From the NCBI GenBank assembly GCA_002343265.1, contig DDSC01000004.1:1898-65897 (forward strand): a stretch of DNA of 64,000 bases, written 5' to 3'. The position numbers and the translations under genes were made by a program. A model generated the notes under the pieces. That model made no database searches and had not been told where the DNA came from. It saw nothing but the letters and a program-made list of their open reading frames with translations. Of this stretch, positions 41,932 to 61,083 are shown one piece after another (the first letter of the stretch is position 1; each line of letters starts with the position of its first letter). This DNA comes from Micavibrio sp. UBA2400. Lineage in GTDB: Bacteria; Pseudomonadota; Alphaproteobacteria; UBA2400.

Positions 41932-42585
41932 ATGCCCTGGACCCGTGACCAACTGGCCGAACGCGCCGCCAAGGAGCTGCGCGATGGGTATTATGTCAAT
42001 CTTGGTATCGGCATCCCCACTCTTGTCGCCAACTACATTCCGGCGGGGATGGATGTGACCCTGCAAAGCGAGAACGGCATGCTGGGTATCGGCCCCTTCC
42101 CGTTTGAAGGGGAAGAAGACCCGGACCTCATCAATGCGGGCAAGCAGACCATTACCGCCTTGCCGCGCTCAAGTTATTTCAGCAGCGCCGAGAGCTTTGC
42201 CATGATCCGGGGCGGGCATATCGACCTGTCCATTCTGGGGGCCATGCAGGTTTCCGAATTTGGCGATCTGGCCAACTGGATGGTGCCCGGCAAGATGGTG
42301 AAAGGCATGGGCGGCGCGATGGATCTGGTCGCGGGCGTCAAAAATGTGGTGGTGGTGATGGAACACACCACCAAAGAGGGCGAAAGCAAGTTTCTGCCCA
42401 GCTGTAATCTGCCGCTGACCGGCAAGGGCGTGGTCGACCTGCTGATTACCGATCTGGCCGTTTTCCGCATTGACGCCAAAAGTGGTGCTCAACTTATTGA
42501 GCTGGCACCGGGCGTAACGCTGGAGGAGGTAAGAGCCAAGACGGCGGCCACGTTTACGGTTGCGGCGCAGCTGAAGGCGGCGTAA
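41932..42585 (+). CDS. scoB: 3-oxoacid CoA-transferase subunit B
   Basis: Beta subunit with catalytic-Glu region [12 protein letters not shown] aaggag before ATG 41932. Confidence 0.9.
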
Positions 42586-43279
42586 CCGGGGTAAGGGCTG
42601 CGTCGGGCTGGGGACGCCGGGCAATCCGGCCAATCAAGCTGGCAAATTGGTCGGCGATTCCAGCCGTATGCTGCTCGTCAGGACCAAGGGGCACCGCGGG
42701 AGTATAGCGGGTAAGAGCAATGCCGTTACCCGCAGGTGCCGTGTCGGCGGACCGCTCATGCTGTTGAGCCCGTTCAACCAGCCGGGTAAATTCTTCGGCA
42801 AACTGCTGTTCTGCGTGCGGCGCTTTTTTGATCTCACCGCCATCAGTGAGATGCCAGCGCACCAGAAACTGCACATCCTGCTGCATCACTTTCAACCGCT
42901 CATACTCGCGCCCGAAGGCCTCGGGGGAGAGGCCATTATTCTCGAGATTGAGGCTGCCATAGCGTTTGCGGTTCAGCGAATCCCCCCAGCTGAACGTGGC
43001 CTGCACTGGTGGGCTTACGGCACCTAATACCAAACTGGCAAGTCCGGCAAAGGCCGAGAGCGGATTCTTGCCGGGCAGGTCGGGAATGACTTTGTCATCT
43101 ACCCGCGTGAGGCGCATCATCGCCAGCTCGGCGGAACTCCCTGCCGCCATTCGTTGTAAATTCGTGCTTTGCATAAGAGCTTCACTGTGCACCATGGCGG
43201 CAGCAATACGCGTATAGCGCTCTAGGCTCGCCGTGGGATGGGCCGGAGAAGCTGAGAGATCAACCGCAGGATCGGGCAT
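42554..43279 (-). CDS. Hypothetical protein (up to 241 aa)
   Basis: Protein-like composition. Convergent with scoB, overlapping it by 32 nt. An internal start is possible. No family recognised. Confidence 0.4.
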
Positions 43280-43566: not shown

Positions 43567-44436
43567 TCAGCGAACGGCGGTCGCGGCTGGCGTTACGCCC
43601 GGCACAGCCGCCGACGTGCTGGCCGCACTGCCATGGACATAGAGTCCGCGCTGGCCATCCATCGGTTTGAAGGCTTGCGTTACGCCCAGCACCGTTTCGG
43701 CCCCGCCCAGATAGAGGATGCCGTCGGGCGGCATCTGGCGGCCAATGCCTTCGAGCACCTTGGCTTTGGTCGCGGGATCGAAATAGATCAGCACATTGCG
43801 GCAAAACACAATATCGAACTGGCCGAGCGCCGTCATCGGCTCCAGCAGATTGAACTGCTGGAACTTGATCTTGCCCTGCATCTGCTTGCTGATCTGCCAC
43901 TTGTCGCCGATCTGGGTGAAGTGCTTGACCAGCATGGTAATGGGCAGACCACGCTGCACCTCGAACTGGGTATAAAGCCCCTGCTTGGCTTTTTCGAGCA
44001 CTTCACGGCACAAATCAGTTGCCACGATCTCGATAGTCCAACCCGGCATCTTGCTGGCTTCTTCATCAAGAATCATTGCCAGCGAATATGGCTCCTGCCC
44101 GTTGGAACAGGCTGCCGACCAGATGCGCAGGCGGCGCGTGGCGGCCCGCGCCTGCAAGAAGCGCGGCAGCACCACCTGACGAAACTGGTCGAAGGGCTTT
44201 TGGTCACGAAAGAAGGATGACTCATTCGTCGTCATCGCATCGGTAATATCAGCCAGCAGAGCCTCATCAGACTTGCTGCGCAGGGCATTGGCCAGTTCGC
44301 CCAGATCCTTGAAGTTCCAGCGGCGGGCCACCGGCATCAGGCGGCTGTCCAGCAGATAGGCCTTTTCCTTGGTCAGTACGAGACCGGAGCGCTGATAGAC
44401 GAATTTGGCAAACAGATCAAAATCTTCAACTCTCAT
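43567..44436 (-). CDS. cheR: Chemotaxis protein methyltransferase CheR
   Basis: CheR N-terminal helical domain plus SAM-MTase domain (...TNESSFFRD..., IWSAACSNGQEPYSLAM). Start MRVEDF overlaps the cheB stop (ATGA). Confidence 0.9.
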   Translation of the reverse strand: MRVEDFDLFAKFVYQRSGLVLTKEKAYLLDSRLMPVARRWNFKDLGELANALRSKSDEALLADITDAMTTNESSFFRDQKPFDQFRQVVLPRFLQARAATRRLRIWSAACSNGQEPYSLAMILDEEASKMPGWTIEIVATDLCREVLEKAKQGLYTQFEVQRGLPITMLVKHFTQIGDKWQISKQMQGKIKFQQFNLLEPMTALGQFDIVFCRNVLIYFDPATKAKVLEGIGRQMPPDGILYLGGAETVLGVTQAFKPMDGQRGLYVHGSAASTSAAVPGVTPAATAVR

Positions 44437-45593
44437 GCCGCCCCCGCTTTCTTGCGCAGGTAAGGCCCAATCTCGGGCAGTGGTAACACGGCAGCACACA
44501 CACCCGCCGTGGCGACTGCCCCCGGCATTCCCCACACCACCGAGGTGGGCTGGTCCTGAGCGACGATCATGCCCCCGCCATTCACGACGATTTCGCTGCC
44601 CTTCAGGCCATCGGCCCCCATCCCGGTCAGGATAGCCACCAGCATACGGTTGGCACCATACATCTCAATCAGGCTGCGCAGCATCGGGTCTACTGCCGGG
44701 CGACAGAAATTCTCCTGCGGCCCGGAGTCAAGCCGCGCCACCACCCCACTGGCTGTCCGGGTAAAGAGCAGATGGAAATCGCCCGGCGCCAGCAGCGCCT
44801 TGCCGGGGGTCAGGACACTGCCGTCCTTGGCCTCTTCACACGGAACCCCGGTCTGACGCGTGATGTGGTCAGCCAGAATGGTGGTAAAAGTCTTGGGCAT
44901 ATGCTGGGTGATGACAATCGGCTGCTTGAGGTTTTTAAGGTGCGGTAGCACGGCGAACAAGGCCTGCGGCCCGCCGGTAGAGGAGCCGATGGCGATCACA
45001 TCCGGTACCAGCGCGGGTGCCGGACGCAAGGTAATCTTGCCCCCTTCATACAGGCGCGATTTGGTAACGATGGGCGGCGCGCTACTTGGCGCACCCGGAC
45101 TGACTGTACGAGCCACAACGCCCGCGGGCAGTGGGCCGACTTTGCCAAGGCGCTGACGCTCGCGCCAGGCACCGTTGCCCAGCTCCCGCACTTTCTCCAG
45201 CAGGTCGCGTTTCCAGTCCGCCGTAGCATCGACCTCACGGGTGGAGGTCGGCTTGCTGACATAATCGGCCGCCCCCAGCGCCATGGCGCGCAGGCTGATC
45301 TCGGCCCCCTGCAAGGTGAGGGTGGACGACATGATAATGCGGGCCCAGGGCTGCGCTTTCATCAGCAGGGGAATGGCGGTCAGGCCATCCATCACCGGCA
45401 TTTCGATATCAAGGATGATGACATCCGCCAGTTCGCGTTGGGCAAAGCTCACGCCGGCCTGCCCGTCCGCCATGGAGCCGACGATGAGGGCCTCGGGAAT
45501 ATCGGTCAGGGCGCGGGTGACAAAGCCGCGGATGACCGCAGAGTCGTCGACAATAAGCACCCGGATCGGGTCGGCAACAGTGGGTTCAGGCAT
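44433..45593 (-). CDS. cheB: Chemotaxis response regulator protein-glutamate methylesterase CheB
   Basis: REC domain (VLIVDDS...D) plus methylesterase domain with the GSSTGGP catalytic Ser and a His/Asp triad. Confidence 0.9.
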   Translation of the reverse strand: MPEPTVADPIRVLIVDDSAVIRGFVTRALTDIPEALIVGSMADGQAGVSFAQRELADVIILDIEMPVMDGLTAIPLLMKAQPWARIIMSSTLTLQGAEISLRAMALGAADYVSKPTSTREVDATADWKRDLLEKVRELGNGAWRERQRLGKVGPLPAGVVARTVSPGAPSSAPPIVTKSRLYEGGKITLRPAPALVPDVIAIGSSTGGPQALFAVLPHLKNLKQPIVITQHMPKTFTTILADHITRQTGVPCEEAKDGSVLTPGKALLAPGDFHLLFTRTASGVVARLDSGPQENFCRPAVDPMLRSLIEMYGANRMLVAILTGMGADGLKGSEIVVNGGGMIVAQDQPTSVVWGMPGAVATAGVCAAVLPLPEIGPYLRKKAGAA

Positions 45594-45602
45594 AGTCCTT
45601 GG

Positions 45603-45971
45603 TTATCCAATCAGGCCGACTTGTGAAAACTTGGTCTGGATGATGTCGCTGTCAAACGGCTTCATGATGTACTCATTGGCCCCAGCCGACAGCGCTTCCT
45701 TGATGTGATTGAGGTCCGCCTCGGTGGTGCAGAACAGAACTTTGGGCTTGTCGCCACCGGGCATCTTGCGCAGCTCGCGCAGAAACTCAATCCCGTTCAT
45801 CACCGGCATGTTCCAGTCGAGGAGAACGGCGTCCGGCATGGCCTTGCTGCAGGCTTCCTGTGCTTTCTTGCCGTCTTCGGCTTCCGTACAGGTGAATTTG
45901 AGATCTTCCAGAATCTTCCGGGCGATCTGCCGCACGACACGGCTGTCATCAACAATCAGACAGGTTGCCAT
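45603..45971 (-). CDS. cheY: Chemotaxis response regulator CheY
   Basis: Single-domain REC (LIVDDS, LLDWNMP phospho-Asp, conserved T and K) within the che operon. Confidence 0.9.
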   Translation of the reverse strand: MATCLIVDDSRVVRQIARKILEDLKFTCTEAEDGKKAQEACSKAMPDAVLLDWNMPVMNGIEFLRELRKMPGGDKPKVLFCTTEADLNHIKEALSAGANEYIMKPFDSDIIQTKFSQVGLIG

Positions 45972-46006: not shown

Positions 46007-46492
46007 TCAGGCGGCGGACGCCGCGGAGAGATTCAACAGAGCCGCAATATCAATCACGACCATCAACTGACCTTGTAACCGGTATATCCCACGCGAGACA
46101 TCCCGCCAACGGGGATCCAGTGTCGGTGGATTGGCTTCAAAATCAGCCGCATCCAGCGACATGACTTCGCCCACCTGGTCGATCAGCAGGCTGTACTGCT
46201 CGCCATTAAGATCAACCACGACGCTCATGCCCTTCATCTCAGCCGGGCGCGGCGGCAGACCCAGCCGGGTACGGACATCGATCGCCGTTACGATGCGCCC
46301 ACGCAAATTGAGCGAGCCCGCGACCTCGACCGGGGCCAGCGGAATACGGGTGAGCCGCTGCGGCCCGAGCACATCGCGAACCTGCAGCACCGGAATGCCA
46401 AACAACTGTCCGGCAATCGTCATCGTCACATACCCATTGGCCACCGACGGCTCGGCCGCACTGGCGGCGTGAAGAGGGGTAACATTACTCAT
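46007..46492 (-). CDS. cheW: Chemotaxis coupling protein CheW
   Basis: Single CheW-like domain (...FGIPV..V.......P.....G..NLRG..V..ID...). Confidence 0.9.
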   Translation of the reverse strand: MSNVTPLHAASAAEPSVANGYVTMTIAGQLFGIPVLQVRDVLGPQRLTRIPLAPVEVAGSLNLRGRIVTAIDVRTRLGLPPRPAEMKGMSVVVDLNGEQYSLLIDQVGEVMSLDAADFEANPPTLDPRWRDVSRGIYRLQGQLMVVIDIAALLNLSAASAA

Positions 46493-49200
46493 GCGGCACC
46501 TCGCTGGGCTTGCAGGGTTTGGGACAGGGTCGAGAGCAGCGCCTCACGATCGAACTTGGCGACGTGATTGGCAAAACCGGCACGGCGACCGCGATCCTGA
46601 TCGATATTGGTCGCGTGGCTCGACAAAGCAATCACCGGTACGGCCTGCCAGCGGGCATCCTTCTTGAGCGCCTCCACAAACTCGAACCCGCTCATCCCCG
46701 GCATTTCGATATCGCTGACGATGATGTCAAACTCCACGTCACCCTGACAGAGCTGGAGCGCATCAATCGCGCTTTCTACCGTGGTGACCTGATAGCCCGA
46801 GACGTTCAGCAGCGGGGTCAGCATATTACGGAAGAAGGAGCTGTCATCAACCAGCAGGATGCGCTGGGCCCGGCCTTCCTCTTTGCCCTGAAACGCAGTC
46901 GTCGCGCCGAAGAAGTCCTTGAAGGTACGGGTCAGATAGAACCCGGCATCAATGACTTCGGTGCTGCGTCCGGCGATAATGGCTGAGCCCATCAGACCTT
47001 GCGAGTCACTGCCAAGCTGCACGTTGAGGTGTTCTTCAACGATATCGACAATCTCGTCGACCACCAGACCTACCGAGCGCTCGCGATCCGCAAAGACCAG
47101 CACCGGCTGATTGCCCTCGCTGCGCAGCTTGACGCGCTCGTTGAGCGGGATCAGCGGCATCAGGCTGCCGCGGTACTGCACCACCGCCTGACCACCGGAC
47201 TGCTCGATGGTGGCGACGTCGATATCCTCGAGGCGGGCAACCAGCGACAGCGGCACCGCCTTGGGTGCCGTATCACCCGCACGGAACAGGAGCATGGCCA
47301 GTTTGTCGCCACGCTGGGTCGCAGGATTACGCGCTTCCTCAGTGGTCTTCTGCTCGTCCTCACCTGCCGCCTTACCGGTGGCGGCGGCGATGCCGTTGGG
47401 ATCGAGAATCATGATGACGCTGCCGTCGCCCAAAATGGTATTCCCCGAGAACATGTCGATATGGCGCAGGATTGGCGCGACCGGCTTGACCACGATTTCC
47501 TCGGTGTCAAAGACGCGATCCACAATGATGCCGAACGTCTGGCTACCGACTTGTGAGACAACGATGGTCGCCTCGGCAGTCGGCGCGGCCACAGAGGGCA
47601 GCTTGAGCAACGCTGAGAGCGTGACCAGCGGCAGCAGGCGATTGCGCAGACGCAGAACCGGCGCGTTATTGATATGCTCAATCGAATTGTCGCTGTTCTT
47701 GCCACCAGCACGCACCAATTCAAGCACACTGATCTGGGGGATAGCAAACCGCTCGCCCGCGCTTTCCACGATCAGGGCCGACACAATAGCCAGTGTCAGC
47801 GGGATCTTGATGGTAAAGGTACTGCCCTTGCCTTCCACCGACTTCATGTCGATGGTGCCGCCGATCTTTTCGATATTGGTGCGCACGACATCCATGCCCA
47901 CTCCGCGGCCGGATACGGCGGTCACCTGTGCTGCGGTAGAGAACCCCGCCTTGAAGATGTACATATGCACCTGGGCATCGGACATGACCTTGACTTCAGC
48001 TTCGGTCGCCATGCCGTTCTTGATGATCTTTTCGCGGATTTTCTGGGTCGGGAGACCACGGCCATCGTCGGAAATCTGGATGATGATATGCCCGCCCTCG
48101 TGGAAAGCGTTCAGAGTGACACGGCCGGTTTCCTTCTTACCCGCCTTGATGCGGTCGGCTGGGGTCTCAAGACCATGGTCGGCTGAGTTGCGCACCATAT
48201 GGGTGAGCGGGTCCTTGATCATCTCCAGGACCTGACGGTCGAGTTCCGTTTCGGCGCCGAGCATCTGCAGATCAATTTTCTTGCCCAGTTCGCTCGACAG
48301 ATCGCGAATGATGCGCGGCAGCTTGCTCCAGGCATTGCCAATCGGCTGCATGCGCGTCTTCATGACCTGCTCCTGCAGGTCGCTGGTCACATGATTAAGC
48401 CGCTGCAGCGGCGCGGCAAACTCGGTGTCTTTTTGCGTGCGCAGGATCTGCAGCATCTGATTGCGGATCAGCACCAGTTCGCTGACCATGGTCATCAGAC
48501 CTTCCAGCACATCAACATTGACACGCAAGGACTGGTTGGCCAGCGCGGACTCTGCCGCTGGCGCGCTTTCCTTGACGGGCGCGGTTGAGGCGGCAGTCGG
48601 CGCACTGGCGGGGGGTGGCGTCAGCTCAGCCGTCTTATGGGCGGGCACAGGGACAAACCCATGCTCATCGGGAGCCGGGCTGGTAACGGCCGCGGCCACA
48701 TCGGCGGTCTTGTGGGCGGGCACCGGCACAAAGCCATGCTCGTCCGGCACCGGTTCGCTGCTGACCGGAGCCGAAGCTGCGGCCAACGGGGGCGCAGCAG
48801 CAGCAGGGACGCCGCCGCCATCCTTGCCATCGGCATGATCGTTGAGCTGGGCAATCAGCTCGGTATCGGCCCCTTCCGGTTCGGTCCCGGCTTCTTCCAG
48901 CGCGGCCAACAGGGTTTTGATCCGGTCAAGCGCAGCCAGAATGAGGGTGACGGAATAGGGCGTAACCGGCAGTTTGCCATCACGGAATTTGCCAAGAATG
49001 TTTTCGCCAGCATGAGCGACCTGCTCCAGACGGGGCAAGCCAAGAAAGCCGCAGGTGCCCTTGATGGTATGCACCGTCCGGAAAATTGTGTTGAGCAGCG
49101 CCGGGTCGTTGGGGTTCTGCTCGAGCTTGATGAGCTCGTTATCGAGCACCGCGAGATTCTCGTTCGTCTCGGTCAAAAATTCGCGCAGCAGATCATCCAT
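46489..49200 (-). CDS. cheA: Chemotaxis histidine kinase CheA. Hybrid: Hpt, dimerisation domain, HATPase, two CheW-like domains, C-terminal receiver.
   Basis: Hpt with H in TVHTIKG. CheA dimerisation/HATPase blocks (DHGLE, ISDDGRGL, GRGVGMDVV, GKGSTF). Two CheW-like domains. C-terminal REC (ILLVDDS...D in SDIEMPGMSG...K). Confidence 0.9.
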   Translation of the reverse strand: MDDLLREFLTETNENLAVLDNELIKLEQNPNDPALLNTIFRTVHTIKGTCGFLGLPRLEQVAHAGENILGKFRDGKLPVTPYSVTLILAALDRIKTLLAALEEAGTEPEGADTELIAQLNDHADGKDGGGVPAAAAPPLAAASAPVSSEPVPDEHGFVPVPAHKTADVAAAVTSPAPDEHGFVPVPAHKTAELTPPPASAPTAASTAPVKESAPAAESALANQSLRVNVDVLEGLMTMVSELVLIRNQMLQILRTQKDTEFAAPLQRLNHVTSDLQEQVMKTRMQPIGNAWSKLPRIIRDLSSELGKKIDLQMLGAETELDRQVLEMIKDPLTHMVRNSADHGLETPADRIKAGKKETGRVTLNAFHEGGHIIIQISDDGRGLPTQKIREKIIKNGMATEAEVKVMSDAQVHMYIFKAGFSTAAQVTAVSGRGVGMDVVRTNIEKIGGTIDMKSVEGKGSTFTIKIPLTLAIVSALIVESAGERFAIPQISVLELVRAGGKNSDNSIEHINNAPVLRLRNRLLPLVTLSALLKLPSVAAPTAEATIVVSQVGSQTFGIIVDRVFDTEEIVVKPVAPILRHIDMFSGNTILGDGSVIMILDPNGIAAATGKAAGEDEQKTTEEARNPATQRGDKLAMLLFRAGDTAPKAVPLSLVARLEDIDVATIEQSGGQAVVQYRGSLMPLIPLNERVKLRSEGNQPVLVFADRERSVGLVVDEIVDIVEEHLNVQLGSDSQGLMGSAIIAGRSTEVIDAGFYLTRTFKDFFGATTAFQGKEEGRAQRILLVDDSSFFRNMLTPLLNVSGYQVTTVESAIDALQLCQGDVEFDIIVSDIEMPGMSGFEFVEALKKDARWQAVPVIALSSHATNIDQDRGRRAGFANHVAKFDREALLSTLSQTLQAQRGAA
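48632..48781. repeat. Imperfect 75-bp tandem duplication inside the cheA Hpt–kinase linker
   Basis: Units start at 48632 and 48707 (gtctt(a/g)tgggcgggcac...). Encodes the duplicated peptide PDEHGFVPVPAHKTA. Confidence 0.6.
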
Positions 49201-49332
49201 GAACGTTCCCCCTACATGCCCATTCGGGTCAGGTTATCGCTCTATTTCGCGCAGAAAGACCTTAACAAGCCGTTACCCGAACAGCTGATCGTTAAAATTA
49301 CAACTTATTGATAGGTCTTGACCTTTTGCTGA

Positions 49333-49989
49333 TCAGGCAGCGACCGGGACAGGCGTATAAACAAGGCTCATGTCCAAACGATCCTCGCCGCTCTGGCTCC
49401 ACCCCAGCTTGACCCCATAATGCTCGGCAAACCGGGCTGTGATATAGGGGTGAATGCTACGTGCCGTAAGGTCATCTATCGCTACGTCACCCTTAAGTGC
49501 GGGCCAGGCTTCCTCCCGGGTTCCTGCGCCACGACCTTGGGCGAGGATGGTAAGGCGGCCCGGTTCAGGCCGCGCCACCTCAATCGTGCCGCCGTGGACC
49601 AGATTTTCTACAGCCACGATCAACAGGTTAAGCAATACCTTGGGCACTCCGCGCGGCTGCCCGGTGATATCTTTCATAACCGCCGCATCCCAGCTGATGG
49701 CGGCCCGACTGCCGGCCAGATAATCGCGCAGAGTTGTCAAAATATCATCGCAGGACAGATTGGCATCGGCCCCGGCTGCCCCATAGCCCACGCGAAACAA
49801 CCGCAGACGCCGCGCGGCCTGCTCGGAAGAATGGCCGATCAGCTTGGCGGCCTCTTCCCCCACCTGTGCGCCCATTTCTTCAAGTAATTCAACACCGTTA
49901 CTGATGGCCCCCACCGGACTGATGAGGTCGTGGCAGATGCGCGAGGCCAGTAATTCCATCACGCGCAGATTTTCCAGCACCGGCGGCAT
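49333..49989 (-). CDS. ChpT-family histidine phosphotransferase-like protein (DUF2328-type)
   Basis: ELLASRICHDLISPVGAISNGVELLEE is the ChpT-type HisKA-like helix with conserved His. Followed by a degenerate ATPase-like domain. SD aaggag is best placed for ATG 49989. Confidence 0.6.
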   Translation of the reverse strand: MPPVLENLRVMELLASRICHDLISPVGAISNGVELLEEMGAQVGEEAAKLIGHSSEQAARRLRLFRVGYGAAGADANLSCDDILTTLRDYLAGSRAAISWDAAVMKDITGQPRGVPKVLLNLLIVAVENLVHGGTIEVARPEPGRLTILAQGRGAGTREEAWPALKGDVAIDDLTARSIHPYITARFAEHYGVKLGWSQSGEDRLDMSLVYTPVPVAA

Positions 49990-50112
49990 GGTCATCTCCT
50001 TAAATTCTGTCGCGGGCGCACCTGTGTGGCCCGAAGACACCATCGCTGGTTTACCTTATTTTGGCAACATCCTCACTAGGGATTGTTTACTTTTCACCCG
50101 GCACACTCGGGC

Positions 50113-52095
50113 ATGGCCTCGCGCTCCCTTTTTCAGTCCGACACCGCCGCCCACGACCTCGGGCTCTCCCTGCTTGGGCAGCTCGGGACGGGCGATGGCC
50201 TGCTGAGCAGTGTTGTCCCTCTGCGCGCCGTATTGATGCAGATGCTCACGCTCTACAGCTCGGCGGTGCTGGTGATCGCCGGGTTCATCGTGTTGTATTA
50301 TTTTACGCTGGTCATTGTCGATGCCGCCAAAACCGGTCAGGCCTTCCGGCGGATCGACCCGGTATGGGGGCCGCTGCGGCTAGTGATCGCCATTGGCATT
50401 CTGGTGCCTCTGGGCGGCGGCCTGAACAGCGGCCAGCTGATGGTGCTACAGCTCTCGCAGTGGGGTTCCGGTCTGGCGTCCCAGCTCTGGCAGCAGGTGG
50501 GCGAAGATAGCCAGTTGGTACAGCCCATGATCGCGCGGCCTGGCCCGGTACCGGCGCTAGCGCTAGTGCGCGCACTGGTGCTGCGCGATGCCTGCGTGGC
50601 CTACACTACTCGCTTGGCCTATGAGCAGCAGACCGCCTATCGCCGCGCTCGCGAAGCAATCAAATCCGACAAACCCGCCAATGATGCCCCGGTTCTAACG
50701 CCACCAACGCTCTATCCGGTTCTCGCCCAGCCGGTCGCTACCAACGCCGATGGCTCGCAGACGACACCCTATGGCTGGACCGAGCGGCCTTATTTTTGCG
50801 GCTCCACCACTATTTTTCCGCCCACTCCGCGCACCGAAGAAACCCTGTTCAACCTGCTCAAGCAGGCCCATGTTGATGGCCTGCGCCGACTAGAAGGACG
50901 TACACAGGAATACGCGCAGGACTATCTGCAGCTGGCCATGGGGCAGCGATTGCTTAACAACCGCTCGCCTCTGACACTGGCCGAAATCTATGAGACGGAG
51001 TTGCGCTTTGCCAATTCACCCGGCTTCAACAGTGCGCTGGGCCAGCACCTGTCGATCCTGCACAACCAGCTCCGACCGCTCGGCTGGGTGGGGGCGCCCG
51101 CTTATCTGGATTCGATTCTACGCTTGAATCTGCGTTTGATCAGCTTGAACGCCTCCCTGCCCCAGATTGACCCACCTGAGGTTCTGATTGCGCCGCCGCC
51201 ACTGGCGACTGCGACGGCTGCGGAAACCAAAATCTACGAACTGTTACACCGCATTGACCGCTCATGGGGCGATGTAGCGCGCGTCCCCCCGCTCAGTGCG
51301 GCGGGATTGGGTGGCTTATCTACCTTGCTCAGCCATGCGGTCGCGCTGTCGCGCGAAGTGCCCGGTACAGGCGCGGCCGGTCACCAGTTGCGGGTGGCAC
51401 GCGATCTGATGCAAACCAGCGATTATGACTGGGCGACCTTTGCCCGACAAAATCCACTGGTGGGTCTGGCTGAACTTGGCACCTATCTGACCGGCAAAGC
51501 CGCCGGACTGCTGGCCGGAGCGGGGGTGCTGGATAGCGTGGGTCCGGTCACCGGGCCAATGGTGGTGATGATTACCGCTTTGGGTCTGATGGCATTCGTT
51601 GTCAGCATTGCCCTGCTGCTGGTCCTGCCGCTGATCCCCTTGGTCCGGTTTTTTCTCGGCGTCGCGGTCTGGCTGGTGGAAGTGTTTGAAGCGCTCATCG
51701 CTATTCCGCTGGTCGCGCTGGCCCATCTGCGCGCCGACGAGCATGGGCTGGCCGGACAAAGTGCCATTTTGTGCTATCTGATGATCCTCAAGATCATGCT
51801 GCGTCCGGCCCTGATGGTTCTGGGTCTGCTTGGCGGCTTCATCCTGTTCCTGATCCTGCTCGGGGCGCTAAACAGCCTGTTGGCCGGCAGTATGCCCGGC
51901 GTTATTAACAGTGGCCAGATCTCCAGCCTGTGGTTTGTGCTGGTGAGCGGGGTTTATGCCCTGCTGCTGCTGGGAATTGCCAATGCCTGCTTCAAGCTGA
52001 TCGACTGGCTGCCCCAGCGCACTTTAACCTGGCTGCAAGGCCTGCTGCAGCCGGGGCGCAACCACGGCCAAACAGCCCCGGAACCGACCGCTTGA
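50113..52095 (+). CDS. Large polytopic membrane protein (about 660 aa), unassigned. Topology vaguely TrbL/VirB6- or DotA/TraY-like.
   Basis: N-terminal pair of TM helices, an approx. 330-aa non-hydrophobic central domain, and a C-terminal cluster of 5-6 TM helices. The ORF opens at TTG 50083; first ATG at 50113. Confidence 0.5.
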   Translation: MASRSLFQSDTAAHDLGLSLLGQLGTGDGLLSSVVPLRAVLMQMLTLYSSAVLVIAGFIVLYYFTLVIVDAAKTGQAFRRIDPVWGPLRLVIAIGILVPLGGGLNSGQLMVLQLSQWGSGLASQLWQQVGEDSQLVQPMIARPGPVPALALVRALVLRDACVAYTTRLAYEQQTAYRRAREAIKSDKPANDAPVLTPPTLYPVLAQPVATNADGSQTTPYGWTERPYFCGSTTIFPPTPRTEETLFNLLKQAHVDGLRRLEGRTQEYAQDYLQLAMGQRLLNNRSPLTLAEIYETELRFANSPGFNSALGQHLSILHNQLRPLGWVGAPAYLDSILRLNLRLISLNASLPQIDPPEVLIAPPPLATATAAETKIYELLHRIDRSWGDVARVPPLSAAGLGGLSTLLSHAVALSREVPGTGAAGHQLRVARDLMQTSDYDWATFARQNPLVGLAELGTYLTGKAAGLLAGAGVLDSVGPVTGPMVVMITALGLMAFVVSIALLLVLPLIPLVRFFLGVAVWLVEVFEALIAIPLVALAHLRADEHGLAGQSAILCYLMILKIMLRPALMVLGLLGGFILFLILLGALNSLLAGSMPGVINSGQISSLWFVLVSGVYALLLLGIANACFKLIDWLPQRTLTWLQGLLQPGRNHGQTAPEPTA

Positions 52096-60141: not shown

Positions 60142-61011
60142 CTAGTTCAAAACTGCCGAACCATCCAGCAAGCGGGCGGGATCAAGCAGAACTTCGGTGC
60201 GCGAGCGCCCTACCGGGGTGGCCAGCGGTGCAACGCGATCATCGACCAGAATCGCCAGCATGGCCAGATTACCGGTCGAAAGCTTGAGCACACGACCCTT
60301 GGGAATTTCGTAGATCTGGCCGGGCTTGAGAACCAGACTGGCCACACGCACTCCATTAAGGTCATGCAGCTGCATCCAGCCCTCGCCATAAGCCCGCACC
60401 CGGACGGTGGGTGGTGCCACGACCACCGGTGCCGCGGGCTGGGCATAAACGGTGCCAGAATGCCCCTCGCTTGCCACCGGCGCGGGAGCTTCGGCAAAGC
60501 GGCTGGGCAGCGGGGGAACTTCCAGCGCCCGCGCCCGCTCGGTTGAACTGCCCGGCTGCCACACACTGTAAATACTCAGCAGCATGATGAATCCAGCCAG
60601 AAGCGCGACCAGACCGGGGCGGCGGCGTACTTCCATATCGACTGCTGCCTTGAAGGGCAGGGCGGGGAGCGTCGGCAGCTCGGCGAGGGCGCGATTATCG
60701 TTCGTGGCCTCGGCTTCAAAGCGGGTGAGCAGCTCGGCGCGGTTGAGCTGCAGGAAGCCGGCATAAGCGGCGACGAACCCCTTGGCATAGACCAGCGGTG
60801 GCAGATCGCGAAAGCGACCCTCTTCCAGCGCTTCCAGATGACCTTCGCGGATATTAAGGGCACTGGCAACTTCGCTCAGCCGGTAGCCTTGCAACAGGCG
60901 GGCATTACGCAGCTCGCTAGCGATGGATTCCGGCGTATGCGCTGCCGCCAATGCCGCGCGGGCAGGGCTGGCATCACGCCAATAGGTCTTGAAACGTCCG
61001 AGTTCGCCCAT
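60142..61011 (-). CDS. RodZ-like protein (HTH_XRE, TM, C-terminal DUF4115 domain)
   Basis: N-terminal HTH (LRNARLLQGYRLSEVASALNIREGHLEALEEGRF..LP..VYAKGFV.AYA), one TM (LLAGFIMLLSIY), and a C-terminal beta-rich domain. Confidence 0.7.
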   Translation of the reverse strand: MGELGRFKTYWRDASPARAALAAAHTPESIASELRNARLLQGYRLSEVASALNIREGHLEALEEGRFRDLPPLVYAKGFVAAYAGFLQLNRAELLTRFEAEATNDNRALAELPTLPALPFKAAVDMEVRRRPGLVALLAGFIMLLSIYSVWQPGSSTERARALEVPPLPSRFAEAPAPVASEGHSGTVYAQPAAPVVVAPPTVRVRAYGEGWMQLHDLNGVRVASLVLKPGQIYEIPKGRVLKLSTGNLAMLAILVDDRVAPLATPVGRSRTEVLLDPARLLDGSAVLN

Positions 61012-61083
61012 TTATTAACGATCCGTTAAGAAACTCTGATGGAGCGAGTCATAACAGACACTTAGCCGAATCGGCAACGGTTA

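Follow-up and report, generated by a model that had tools for sequence, protein, structure and literature searches.

Conserved adjacency of chpT and a Che1-type chemotaxis operon in alphaproteobacteria, and its probable regulatory basis

Gene content of the chpT-che locus

The DNA analyzed here is a 64-kb stretch (hereafter the window) of contig DDSC01000004.1 from Micavibrio sp. UBA2400, in which we find six co-oriented genes on the minus strand: chpT-cheA-cheW-cheY-cheB-cheR. The first of these, chpT (49333-49989), encodes the histidine phosphotransferase ChpT, a protein of 218 amino acids (aa) matching PF10090, with the codon of its phospho-accepting His20 at 49930-49932. It is separated from cheA by a spacer of 132 nucleotides (nt; 49201-49332), and within this spacer, at 49262-49276 on the same strand, lies the CtrA-type box GTAACGGCTTGTTAA, which fits TTAA-N7-TTAA with one mismatch. 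The operon proper consists of a hybrid cheA (46489-49200; 903 aa, assigned by Pfam), cheW (46007-46492; 161 aa; PF01584, 109 bits), cheY for a single-domain response regulator (45603-45971; 122 aa; PF00072, 102.6 bits), cheB for a methylesterase with an N-terminal receiver (44433-45593; 386 aa; PF01339 and PF00072), and cheR for a methyltransferase (43567-44436; 289 aa; PF01739 and PF03705). CheB scores 356 bits on NCBIfam NF001965, above the cutoff of that model, and cheR is also called at 289 aa on an identical JGI contig. Unlike the chpT-cheA spacer, the cheA-cheW and cheB-cheR junctions overlap: cheW shares 4 nt with the end of cheA, and the start of cheR overlaps the stop of cheB.

By Pfam, CheA comprises Hpt, H-kinase_dim, HATPase_c, CheW (in two stretches), and Response_reg. 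The Hpt domain (aa 3-95, with His44) is followed by the dimerization domain (aa 222-282), the HATPase (aa 330-469), two CheW/P5 domains (P5A, aa 475-605; P5B, about aa 636-752), and a receiver (REC; aa 781-890) carrying D785, D786, D830, S860, and K882. Scanned alone with a profile hidden Markov model (HMM), the second CheW domain reaches 43 bits against a cutoff of 23.5; a BLASTP comparison of this region with CheW returned no match, although the HMM search did detect CheW there. No methyl-accepting chemotaxis protein (MCP) or CheD domain occurs in the che operon according to the list of open reading frames (ORFs) and Pfam, and no ctrA, cckA, or flagellar gene was found in the window. A first-pass annotation of this DNA had described the operon as cheA-cheW-cheY-cheB-cheR without MCP or cheD, the order of domains in CheA from Hpt to REC, and a co-oriented gene 132 nt upstream of cheA, and all of this was borne out.

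Family membership and predicted fold of ChpT

The longest ORF of chpT reaches 50043 (236 aa), while the identical database protein (P0001) has 218 aa and starts at the third ATG. The window protein scores 79.1 bits on PF10090 (cutoff 22.9; residues 99-220 of the 236-aa ORF), which upholds the family call made earlier from the letters of the sequence. With phmmer it matches Brucella ChpT (4QPJ) over its full length (E-value 2e-25), and it also aligns with Caulobacter ChpT. An AlphaFold2 model (pLDDT 93.9, pTM 0.90) used as a Foldseek query has as its top seven matches the ChpT crystal entries 4QPK, 4QPJ, 4FMT, and 4FPP (TM-score 0.73-0.79); beyond these come true histidine kinases, with query-normalized TM-scores of at most 0.58. 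Family and predicted fold thus agree that the gene preceding cheA encodes a genuine ChpT.

The family had originally been proposed from a signature helix, ELLASRICHDLISPVGAISNGVELL. The helix is present and contains His20, but it is not distinctive: The equivalent in Brucella ChpT is LLCSRICHDIISPIGAINNGLELL. His20 sits in ELLASRICHDLISPVGAI, within the longer helix context SRICHDLISPVGAI; it shows no variation in 33 homologues and is aligned with the corresponding histidine of the Brucella and Caulobacter proteins. From these alignments the helix appears to be the generic ChpT signature, with no mark of a special subfamily. The window protein does not reach the two NCBIfam ChpT equivalog models (125 against a cutoff of 240, and 121 against 225), because these models, one for Brucella/Rhizobiales and one for Caulobacter, are order-specific; they have little bearing on orthology in other orders.

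Orthology of che-linked and che-less chpT genes

A scan of one genome per species yielded 80 chpT loci, which we refer to as the genome set. Window ChpT is 34% identical to the protein of Brucella, 33% to that of Sinorhizobium, 32% to that of Caulobacter, and 30% to that of Sphingomonas. Between orders, these proteins are themselves 32%-39% identical (39% for Brucella-Caulobacter and 32% for Brucella-Sphingomonas), and the divergence of the window sequence looks typical of orthologues from different orders.

Eleven loci of the genome set have ample sequence 3' of chpT yet no che genes there; chpT is thus kept where the che operon has been lost. A neighbor-joining tree of ChpT (209 columns) does not separate these che-less loci from the che-linked ones, and it places Brucella ChpT as sister to all. 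Within the Micavibrio-type clade the order galU-pgm-chpT is shared by full, reduced, and che-less loci: In more than 30 loci (between L004 and L083), the genes galU (for UTP-glucose-1-phosphate uridylyltransferase) and pgm (for phosphomannomutase/phosphoglucomutase) are found ∼2.4 kb upstream of chpT. The window's own clade has a DotA-like gene upstream of chpT instead of galU-pgm. Taken together, tree and gene order indicate that che-linked and che-less chpT are one orthologous gene in one chromosomal slot, next to which repeated trimming or loss of the che operon took place.

These data bear on a different origin for the gene, namely, that it is a che-dedicated paralogue and that a separate canonical chpT lies elsewhere in the genome. 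The equivalog scores under their cutoffs would fit such a paralogue, but the models concerned were built for Brucella/Rhizobiales and Caulobacter, and the che-linked genes share one clade and one slot with che-less genes that adjoin ctrA. A second PF10090 copy is present in no locus and not in the window (2.1 Mb examined, made up of loci with 10 kb on either side and the 64-kb window). For Azospirillum, a search of the plasmid collection, which leaves out the main chromosomes, gave 12 records from strains with a match, each with one chpT match and all on secondary replicons, a single one per strain. In addition, a study of Sphingomonas sp. WG names as ChpT only the gene five numbers from cheR (PMC8921679). 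The first-pass annotation had suggested that the gene product works as a ChpT-like protein in a relay from the CheA receiver to a downstream regulator; position and phylogeny instead equate the gene with the chpT that adjoins ctrA in relatives. We regard a che-dedicated paralogue as very improbable, and the window gene is presumably the sole chpT of its genome.

Linkage to ctrA

Using the A. lipoferum CtrA protein as a query against all loci, we counted as informative the 55 that extend for 3.5 kb or more past the last che gene. In 23 of them a ctrA gene (73%-99% identical) follows that gene at a distance of 0.1-2.7 kb. In three che-less loci (L025, L035, and L082), chpT and ctrA are direct convergent neighbors, and in L021 the order is chpT-cheY-cheR-ctrA. 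Existing annotations show comparable arrangements in several orders. On the A. lipoferum 4B replicon, rpoH is followed at some distance by a chpT-family gene, cheA, cheW, a response regulator, cheB, and cheR, and then by three small genes, a convergent ctrA, and fliI. A Sinorhizobium meliloti chromosome record (mislabeled as a plasmid) has rpoH-rluA, further genes, and then chpT-response regulator-ctrA-fliJ; Sphingomonas parapaucimobilis has rpoH-rluA-M67-chpT-cheA-cheW-response regulator-cheB-cheR. Among cheA loci from metagenomes (see below), more than 20 have ctrA downstream. In Sphingomonas sp. WG, where chpT is Gene3285 and cheR is Gene3280, ChpT is treated as a component of the CckA-ChpT-CtrA pathway (PMC8921679). 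The linkage to ctrA in relatives and the Sphingomonas data therefore point to the gene beside cheA as the ChpT that partners CtrA, and it would probably serve CckA and CtrA in the source organism of the window as well.

Conservation of the chpT-cheA adjacency

In about 60 of the 80 genome loci, chpT is followed by co-oriented che genes, usually the full set cheA-cheW-cheY-cheB-cheR. The che-linked loci include eight Azospirillum species, many Micavibrio-type metagenome-assembled genomes (MAGs), Rhodospirillaceae, and one Kiloniellales MAG. For the reciprocal test, we took CheA homologues (53%-70% identical) from metagenome contigs with more than 1.2 kb of sequence upstream of cheA (n = 58). 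In 52 of these, chpT lies upstream on the same strand, nearly always 100-430 nt away, and many of the ChpT proteins are nearer to the S. meliloti protein than to that of the window. The adjacency, which the first-pass annotation had proposed to check in related genomes, is not due to chance: It is kept in both directions across distant alphaproteobacteria. In the open-access literature we came across no discussion of the chpT-cheA adjacency or of a chpT-cheA-ctrA arrangement.

The arrangement also persists where CheA has no recognizable receiver, as in Sphingomonas (L087), L008, L056, and L074. The L008 protein has two CheW domains and no receiver. In S. parapaucimobilis (L087, 7675-9999), the chpT-adjacent CheA has 774 aa and one CheW domain; its C-terminal tail aligns to the receiver, with D, G, D, C, and K at the catalytic positions, and has no Pfam receiver score, and thus looks like a decaying or pseudo-receiver. 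Loci L056 (10642-11634) and L074 (10661-11701) have a mini-CheA of 330-346 aa with only Hpt and HATPase and with no recognizable dimerization domain, P5, or receiver, which starts 18-26 nt after chpT and is followed by cheY-cheR only. Judged by its domains, this mini-CheA would be unable to connect with receptors as CheA normally does.

The chpT-cheA spacer

Across 50 genome loci the chpT-cheA spacer has a median length of about 172 nt (range 18-858 nt). In the 132-nt spacer of the window, a terminator scan predicted no intrinsic terminator and a sigma-70 scan gave nothing informative. The box GTAACGGCTTGTTAA (49276-49262) starts 76 nt upstream of the cheA ATG. The three closest relatives (L003, L004, and L005) have the same CtrA-type box in a corresponding position.

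Using the CtrA consensus TTAA-N7-TTAA as quoted in PMC8921679, we counted boxes with at most one mismatch and compared the counts with dinucleotide-preserving shuffles (300 in the genome set). Genome spacers are clearly enriched: 46 boxes occur in 35 of 51 spacers, while shuffled spacers have 10.1 ± 3.4 (maximum 21), an excess of ∼4.5-fold, and most boxes lie at -75 to -135 from cheA. The independent metagenome set shows a stronger excess, ∼11-fold, with 47 boxes spread over 38 of 55 spacers, where shuffles give 4.3 ± 2.2 (maximum 12); many of the boxes are perfect TTAAC-N5-GTTAA sites near -130. The window box is convincing only through this conservation across loci. We consider the spacer the probable site of a promoter of the che operon's own, and by motif and position the box in it is a predicted binding site of CtrA.

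Control of flagellar and chemotaxis genes by CtrA is established in Caulobacter, Rhodobacter, and Rhodospirillales, and motility control is thought to be the ancestral role of CtrA (PMC2877005; PMC8116508; PMC9430884). Elsewhere in the window there is a single perfect TTAA-N7-TTAA (61015-61029), far from the operon and 4 nt upstream of an ORF at 60142-61011 on the minus strand, which, going by position only, might be the counterpart of the HTH_25/RodZ_C gene in L003. A single site of this kind is compatible with chance: 0.14 are expected per window, and 13 of 100 shuffles have at least one.

Interpretation of the linkage

We think it probable that the window gene is the canonical chpT of its lineage, not a che-dedicated copy, and that it lies in an ancient motility neighborhood under the control of CtrA. 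On this interpretation chpT would head a Che1-type operon because both belong to an old alphaproteobacterial motility neighborhood, of the order chpT-che operon-ctrA-fli. ChpT is the histidine phosphotransferase that links a hybrid kinase, CckA, to a transcription factor, CtrA: It takes phosphate from the CckA receiver and hands it to CtrA. Phosphorylated CtrA would here act on a promoter in the chpT-cheA spacer from which the che operon is transcribed in its own right. Signals would thus run from CckA through ChpT and CtrA∼P to che transcription. A promoter of this kind together with the CtrA-type box would make the connection between chpT and the che genes regulatory, and a phosphorelay through the CheA receiver need not be part of it.

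Four points weigh against this interpretation. The window has no ctrA, cckA, or flagellar gene, and its link to CtrA is drawn by orthology only. Its box has one mismatch (GTAA...TTAA) and is a putative site, identified by motif match and conservation. A regulatory link does not obviously explain why chpT and cheA adjoin in 52 of 58 metagenome loci when ctrA is often elsewhere. Finally, an intact receiver in a CheA remnant of a Micavibrio MAG (L054, described below) hints at an external phosphodonor.

The CheA receiver as a possible partner of ChpT

The first-pass annotation had suggested a relay from the CheA receiver through a ChpT-like protein to a regulator. In such a scheme phosphate would pass from the receiver to ChpT and on to CtrA or another regulator, and chemoreceptor input would feed the CtrA program; alternatively, ChpT would drain the receiver. 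ChpT is by nature a shuttle between receivers, ctrA is often found at the other end of the operon, and the chpT-cheA adjacency is very strongly kept in both directions. The catalytic residues of the receiver, D785, D786, D830, S860, and K882, are intact in the window and kept in 51 of 52 CheA homologues.

A suggestive single case is L054 (10856-13402), where an 848-aa CheA remnant lies directly after chpT. Its P1 histidine is replaced by aspartate, the dimerization, kinase, and first CheW domains are lost, long low-complexity inserts are present, and no cheW, cheY, cheB, or cheR follows. Its receiver nonetheless retains every catalytic residue and is 52%-54% identical to the receivers of sister CheA proteins. 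With the kinase core gone, the receiver would therefore have to be fed from outside, and ChpT, next to which it has been kept, is one candidate. However, L054 stands alone in this, and at least one Micavibrio genome (M. aeruginosavorus) contains further che clusters from which a donor might come.

The comparative data speak more broadly against the relay. The adjacency persists with receiver-less CheA (Sphingomonas, L008, and L056/L074), and chpT stays when the che operon is lost. In a mirror-tree analysis of 77 loci (partial correlation with ChpT, controlling for the CheA core, nine partners), a crude method that is sensitive to rate differences, the CheA receiver has one of the lowest values (r = 0.15), compared with 0.45 for CheW2 and 0.53 for CheY, the highest. 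The receiver also resembles those of generic hybrid kinases (BarA, TorS, and RcsC, 69-82 bits) more closely than that of CckA (49 bits). We therefore hold a relay through the CheA receiver to be quite unlikely.

CheY as a possible partner of ChpT

A second candidate for phosphoryl exchange with ChpT is CheY. ChpT could act as a source, so that CckA and ChpT would reach the motor through CheY, or as a sink for CheY∼P in systems without CheZ, CheX, or CheC. Six reduced loci retain exactly chpT-cheY-cheR (L021, L022, L027, L049, L052, and L068, the last being M. aeruginosavorus, GMV_713-711 of strain ARL-13). In L052 and L068, the CheA-REC query also gave matches 3' of chpT, but what it aligned with there is CheY. 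The ChpT-CheY mirror-tree value is higher than that of CheY with its known donor P1 (0.21), but the method is sensitive to rate and saturation (mean distance 0.63 for ChpT and 0.31 for CheY). Neighboring genes may, moreover, survive the partial decay of an operon passively. There is a precedent for ChpT acting on a single-domain regulator, CpdR, which it phosphorylates (PMC2877005).

In S. meliloti (L086, 7858-8226; CP090106.1), a single-domain regulator of 122 aa with a degenerate acid pocket (ADGSD) stands between chpT and ctrA. Among the receivers compared, the CheY of che operons is the closest to it (E-values 1e-21 to 1e-23). Its place and its likeness to CheY speak for an exchange between ChpT and CheY, and it might be what is left of the che operon found between chpT and ctrA in other orders; its acid pocket being degenerate, it may also be something else. 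We considered whether it is Osp, the CckA inhibitor of Rhodobacterales, and rejected this, since Osp is reported only in that order.

The argument that M. aeruginosavorus has no CheA at all, which would force a route from ChpT to CheY, likewise fails: The gene list of ARL-13 contains two other che clusters. In an RNA-seq table for this strain the chpT homologue has values of 0 and 5.8 in two phases, and the first column has high values for the main che cluster (GMV_2027-2033); we take the first column to be attack and the second to be attachment. An exchange between ChpT and CheY is proposed from sequence comparison, and we hold it to be quite unlikely as well. If ChpT talks to any Che protein, CheY would be no worse a candidate than the CheA receiver; the evidence for either is not strong.

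Direct phosphotransfer between ChpT and either the CheA receiver or CheY is conceivable. In its broadest form, ChpT would be a shared hub that exchanges phosphoryl groups with CckA, with CtrA, and with the Che1-type pathway through one of these two receivers. This would be why chpT and cheA have stayed neighbors across alphaproteobacterial orders. Chemoreceptor activity might then tune the motility and cell-cycle program of CtrA, or the state of CckA might tune motor control. We find a shared hub rather unlikely overall, and we favor a canonical chpT in a CtrA-controlled motility neighborhood.

Neighboring genes

Upstream of chpT and divergent from it, at 50083-52095 on the plus strand, is a gene for a DotA/TraY-family membrane protein of 670 aa (TIGR04346, 190.8 bits, cutoff 100). 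It stands among housekeeping genes (TPR_21/YfgM-like, BamB-like, and Der) and is also found at this position in L003-L005; around it, no further type IVB secretion genes were seen. Directly 3' of cheR, an ORF of 241 aa (42554-43279, minus strand) has no Pfam or NCBIfam match and is kept only in the closest relative, L003, with 40% identity over the N-terminal 144 residues.

Comparison with known systems

The window protein shares with canonical ChpT the PF10090 domain, the DHp-like helical hairpin with its phospho-accepting histidine in a SRICHDLISP-type helix, and the degenerate kinase-like C-terminal domain. It differs in sequence, with identities of only 32%-34% and scores under the NCBIfam equivalog cutoffs, and in context: Orthologues adjoin ctrA in several genomes, whereas in the window no ctrA is nearby and the che operon comes directly after chpT.

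Several CheA proteins with a C-terminal receiver are known from other chemosensory systems, among them FrzE, WspE, and ChpA, in which the receiver serves as an internal sink, a regulator, or a relay step. We know of none of these systems that has a ChpT-type (DHp-like) phosphotransferase.

Sphingomonas (S. parapaucimobilis and strain WG, Gene3285-3280) resembles the window in having chpT directly upstream of, and co-oriented with, cheA-cheW-cheY-cheB-cheR. Its spacer is shorter (∼60 nt), and its CheA has one CheW domain and no recognizable receiver, in contrast to the two CheW domains and receiver of the window protein.

The closest system is Che1 of Azospirillum brasilense and A. lipoferum, which we take to be of chemotaxis class F5. 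Its gene order, cheA1-cheW1-cheY1-cheB1-cheR1, is that of the window; the window CheA is 64%-65% identical over its full length to CheA1-type proteins, and CheY is 79%-80% identical (80% to the CheY of the A. lipoferum Che1 operon). As in the window, chpT lies upstream of che1 in all Azospirillum loci seen, and A. brasilense CheA1 has a C-terminal receiver and two P5/CheW domains, the latter as stated in PMC6759762. The che1 operon has been described as five genes, with chpT unmentioned (PMC8561660). There are also differences. A. brasilense CheA1 has an N-terminal TMX membrane domain, while Hpt opens the window CheA at residue 3. Several Azospirillum loci match the window CheA from residue 217 onward only, the N-terminal regions being different. 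The Azospirillum spacers measure 190-600 nt, compared with 132 nt, and ctrA follows cheR.

By these comparisons the window operon is orthologous to the Che1 operon of the Azospirillum/Rhodospirillum type. With a member of the known ChpT family in front of an orthologue of a known operon, the finding is therefore largely ordinary and constitutes no new signaling device. It does provide a synteny rule for early-branching alphaproteobacteria: chpT is to be sought upstream of cheAWYBR, often with ctrA downstream. In Rhodospirillales, orthology pipelines recover chpT from only about one genome in three (PMC8116508). The adjacency and the box in the spacer lead, further, to the prediction that CckA-ChpT-CtrA controls the expression of the Che1-type operon. 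If ChpT were also to trade phosphate with the CheA receiver or CheY, chemosensing would be connected directly to the CtrA program. Mutants of A. brasilense Che1 are reported to show changes in cell length and clumping, and such an exchange, if real, might explain these phenotypes beyond chemotaxis.

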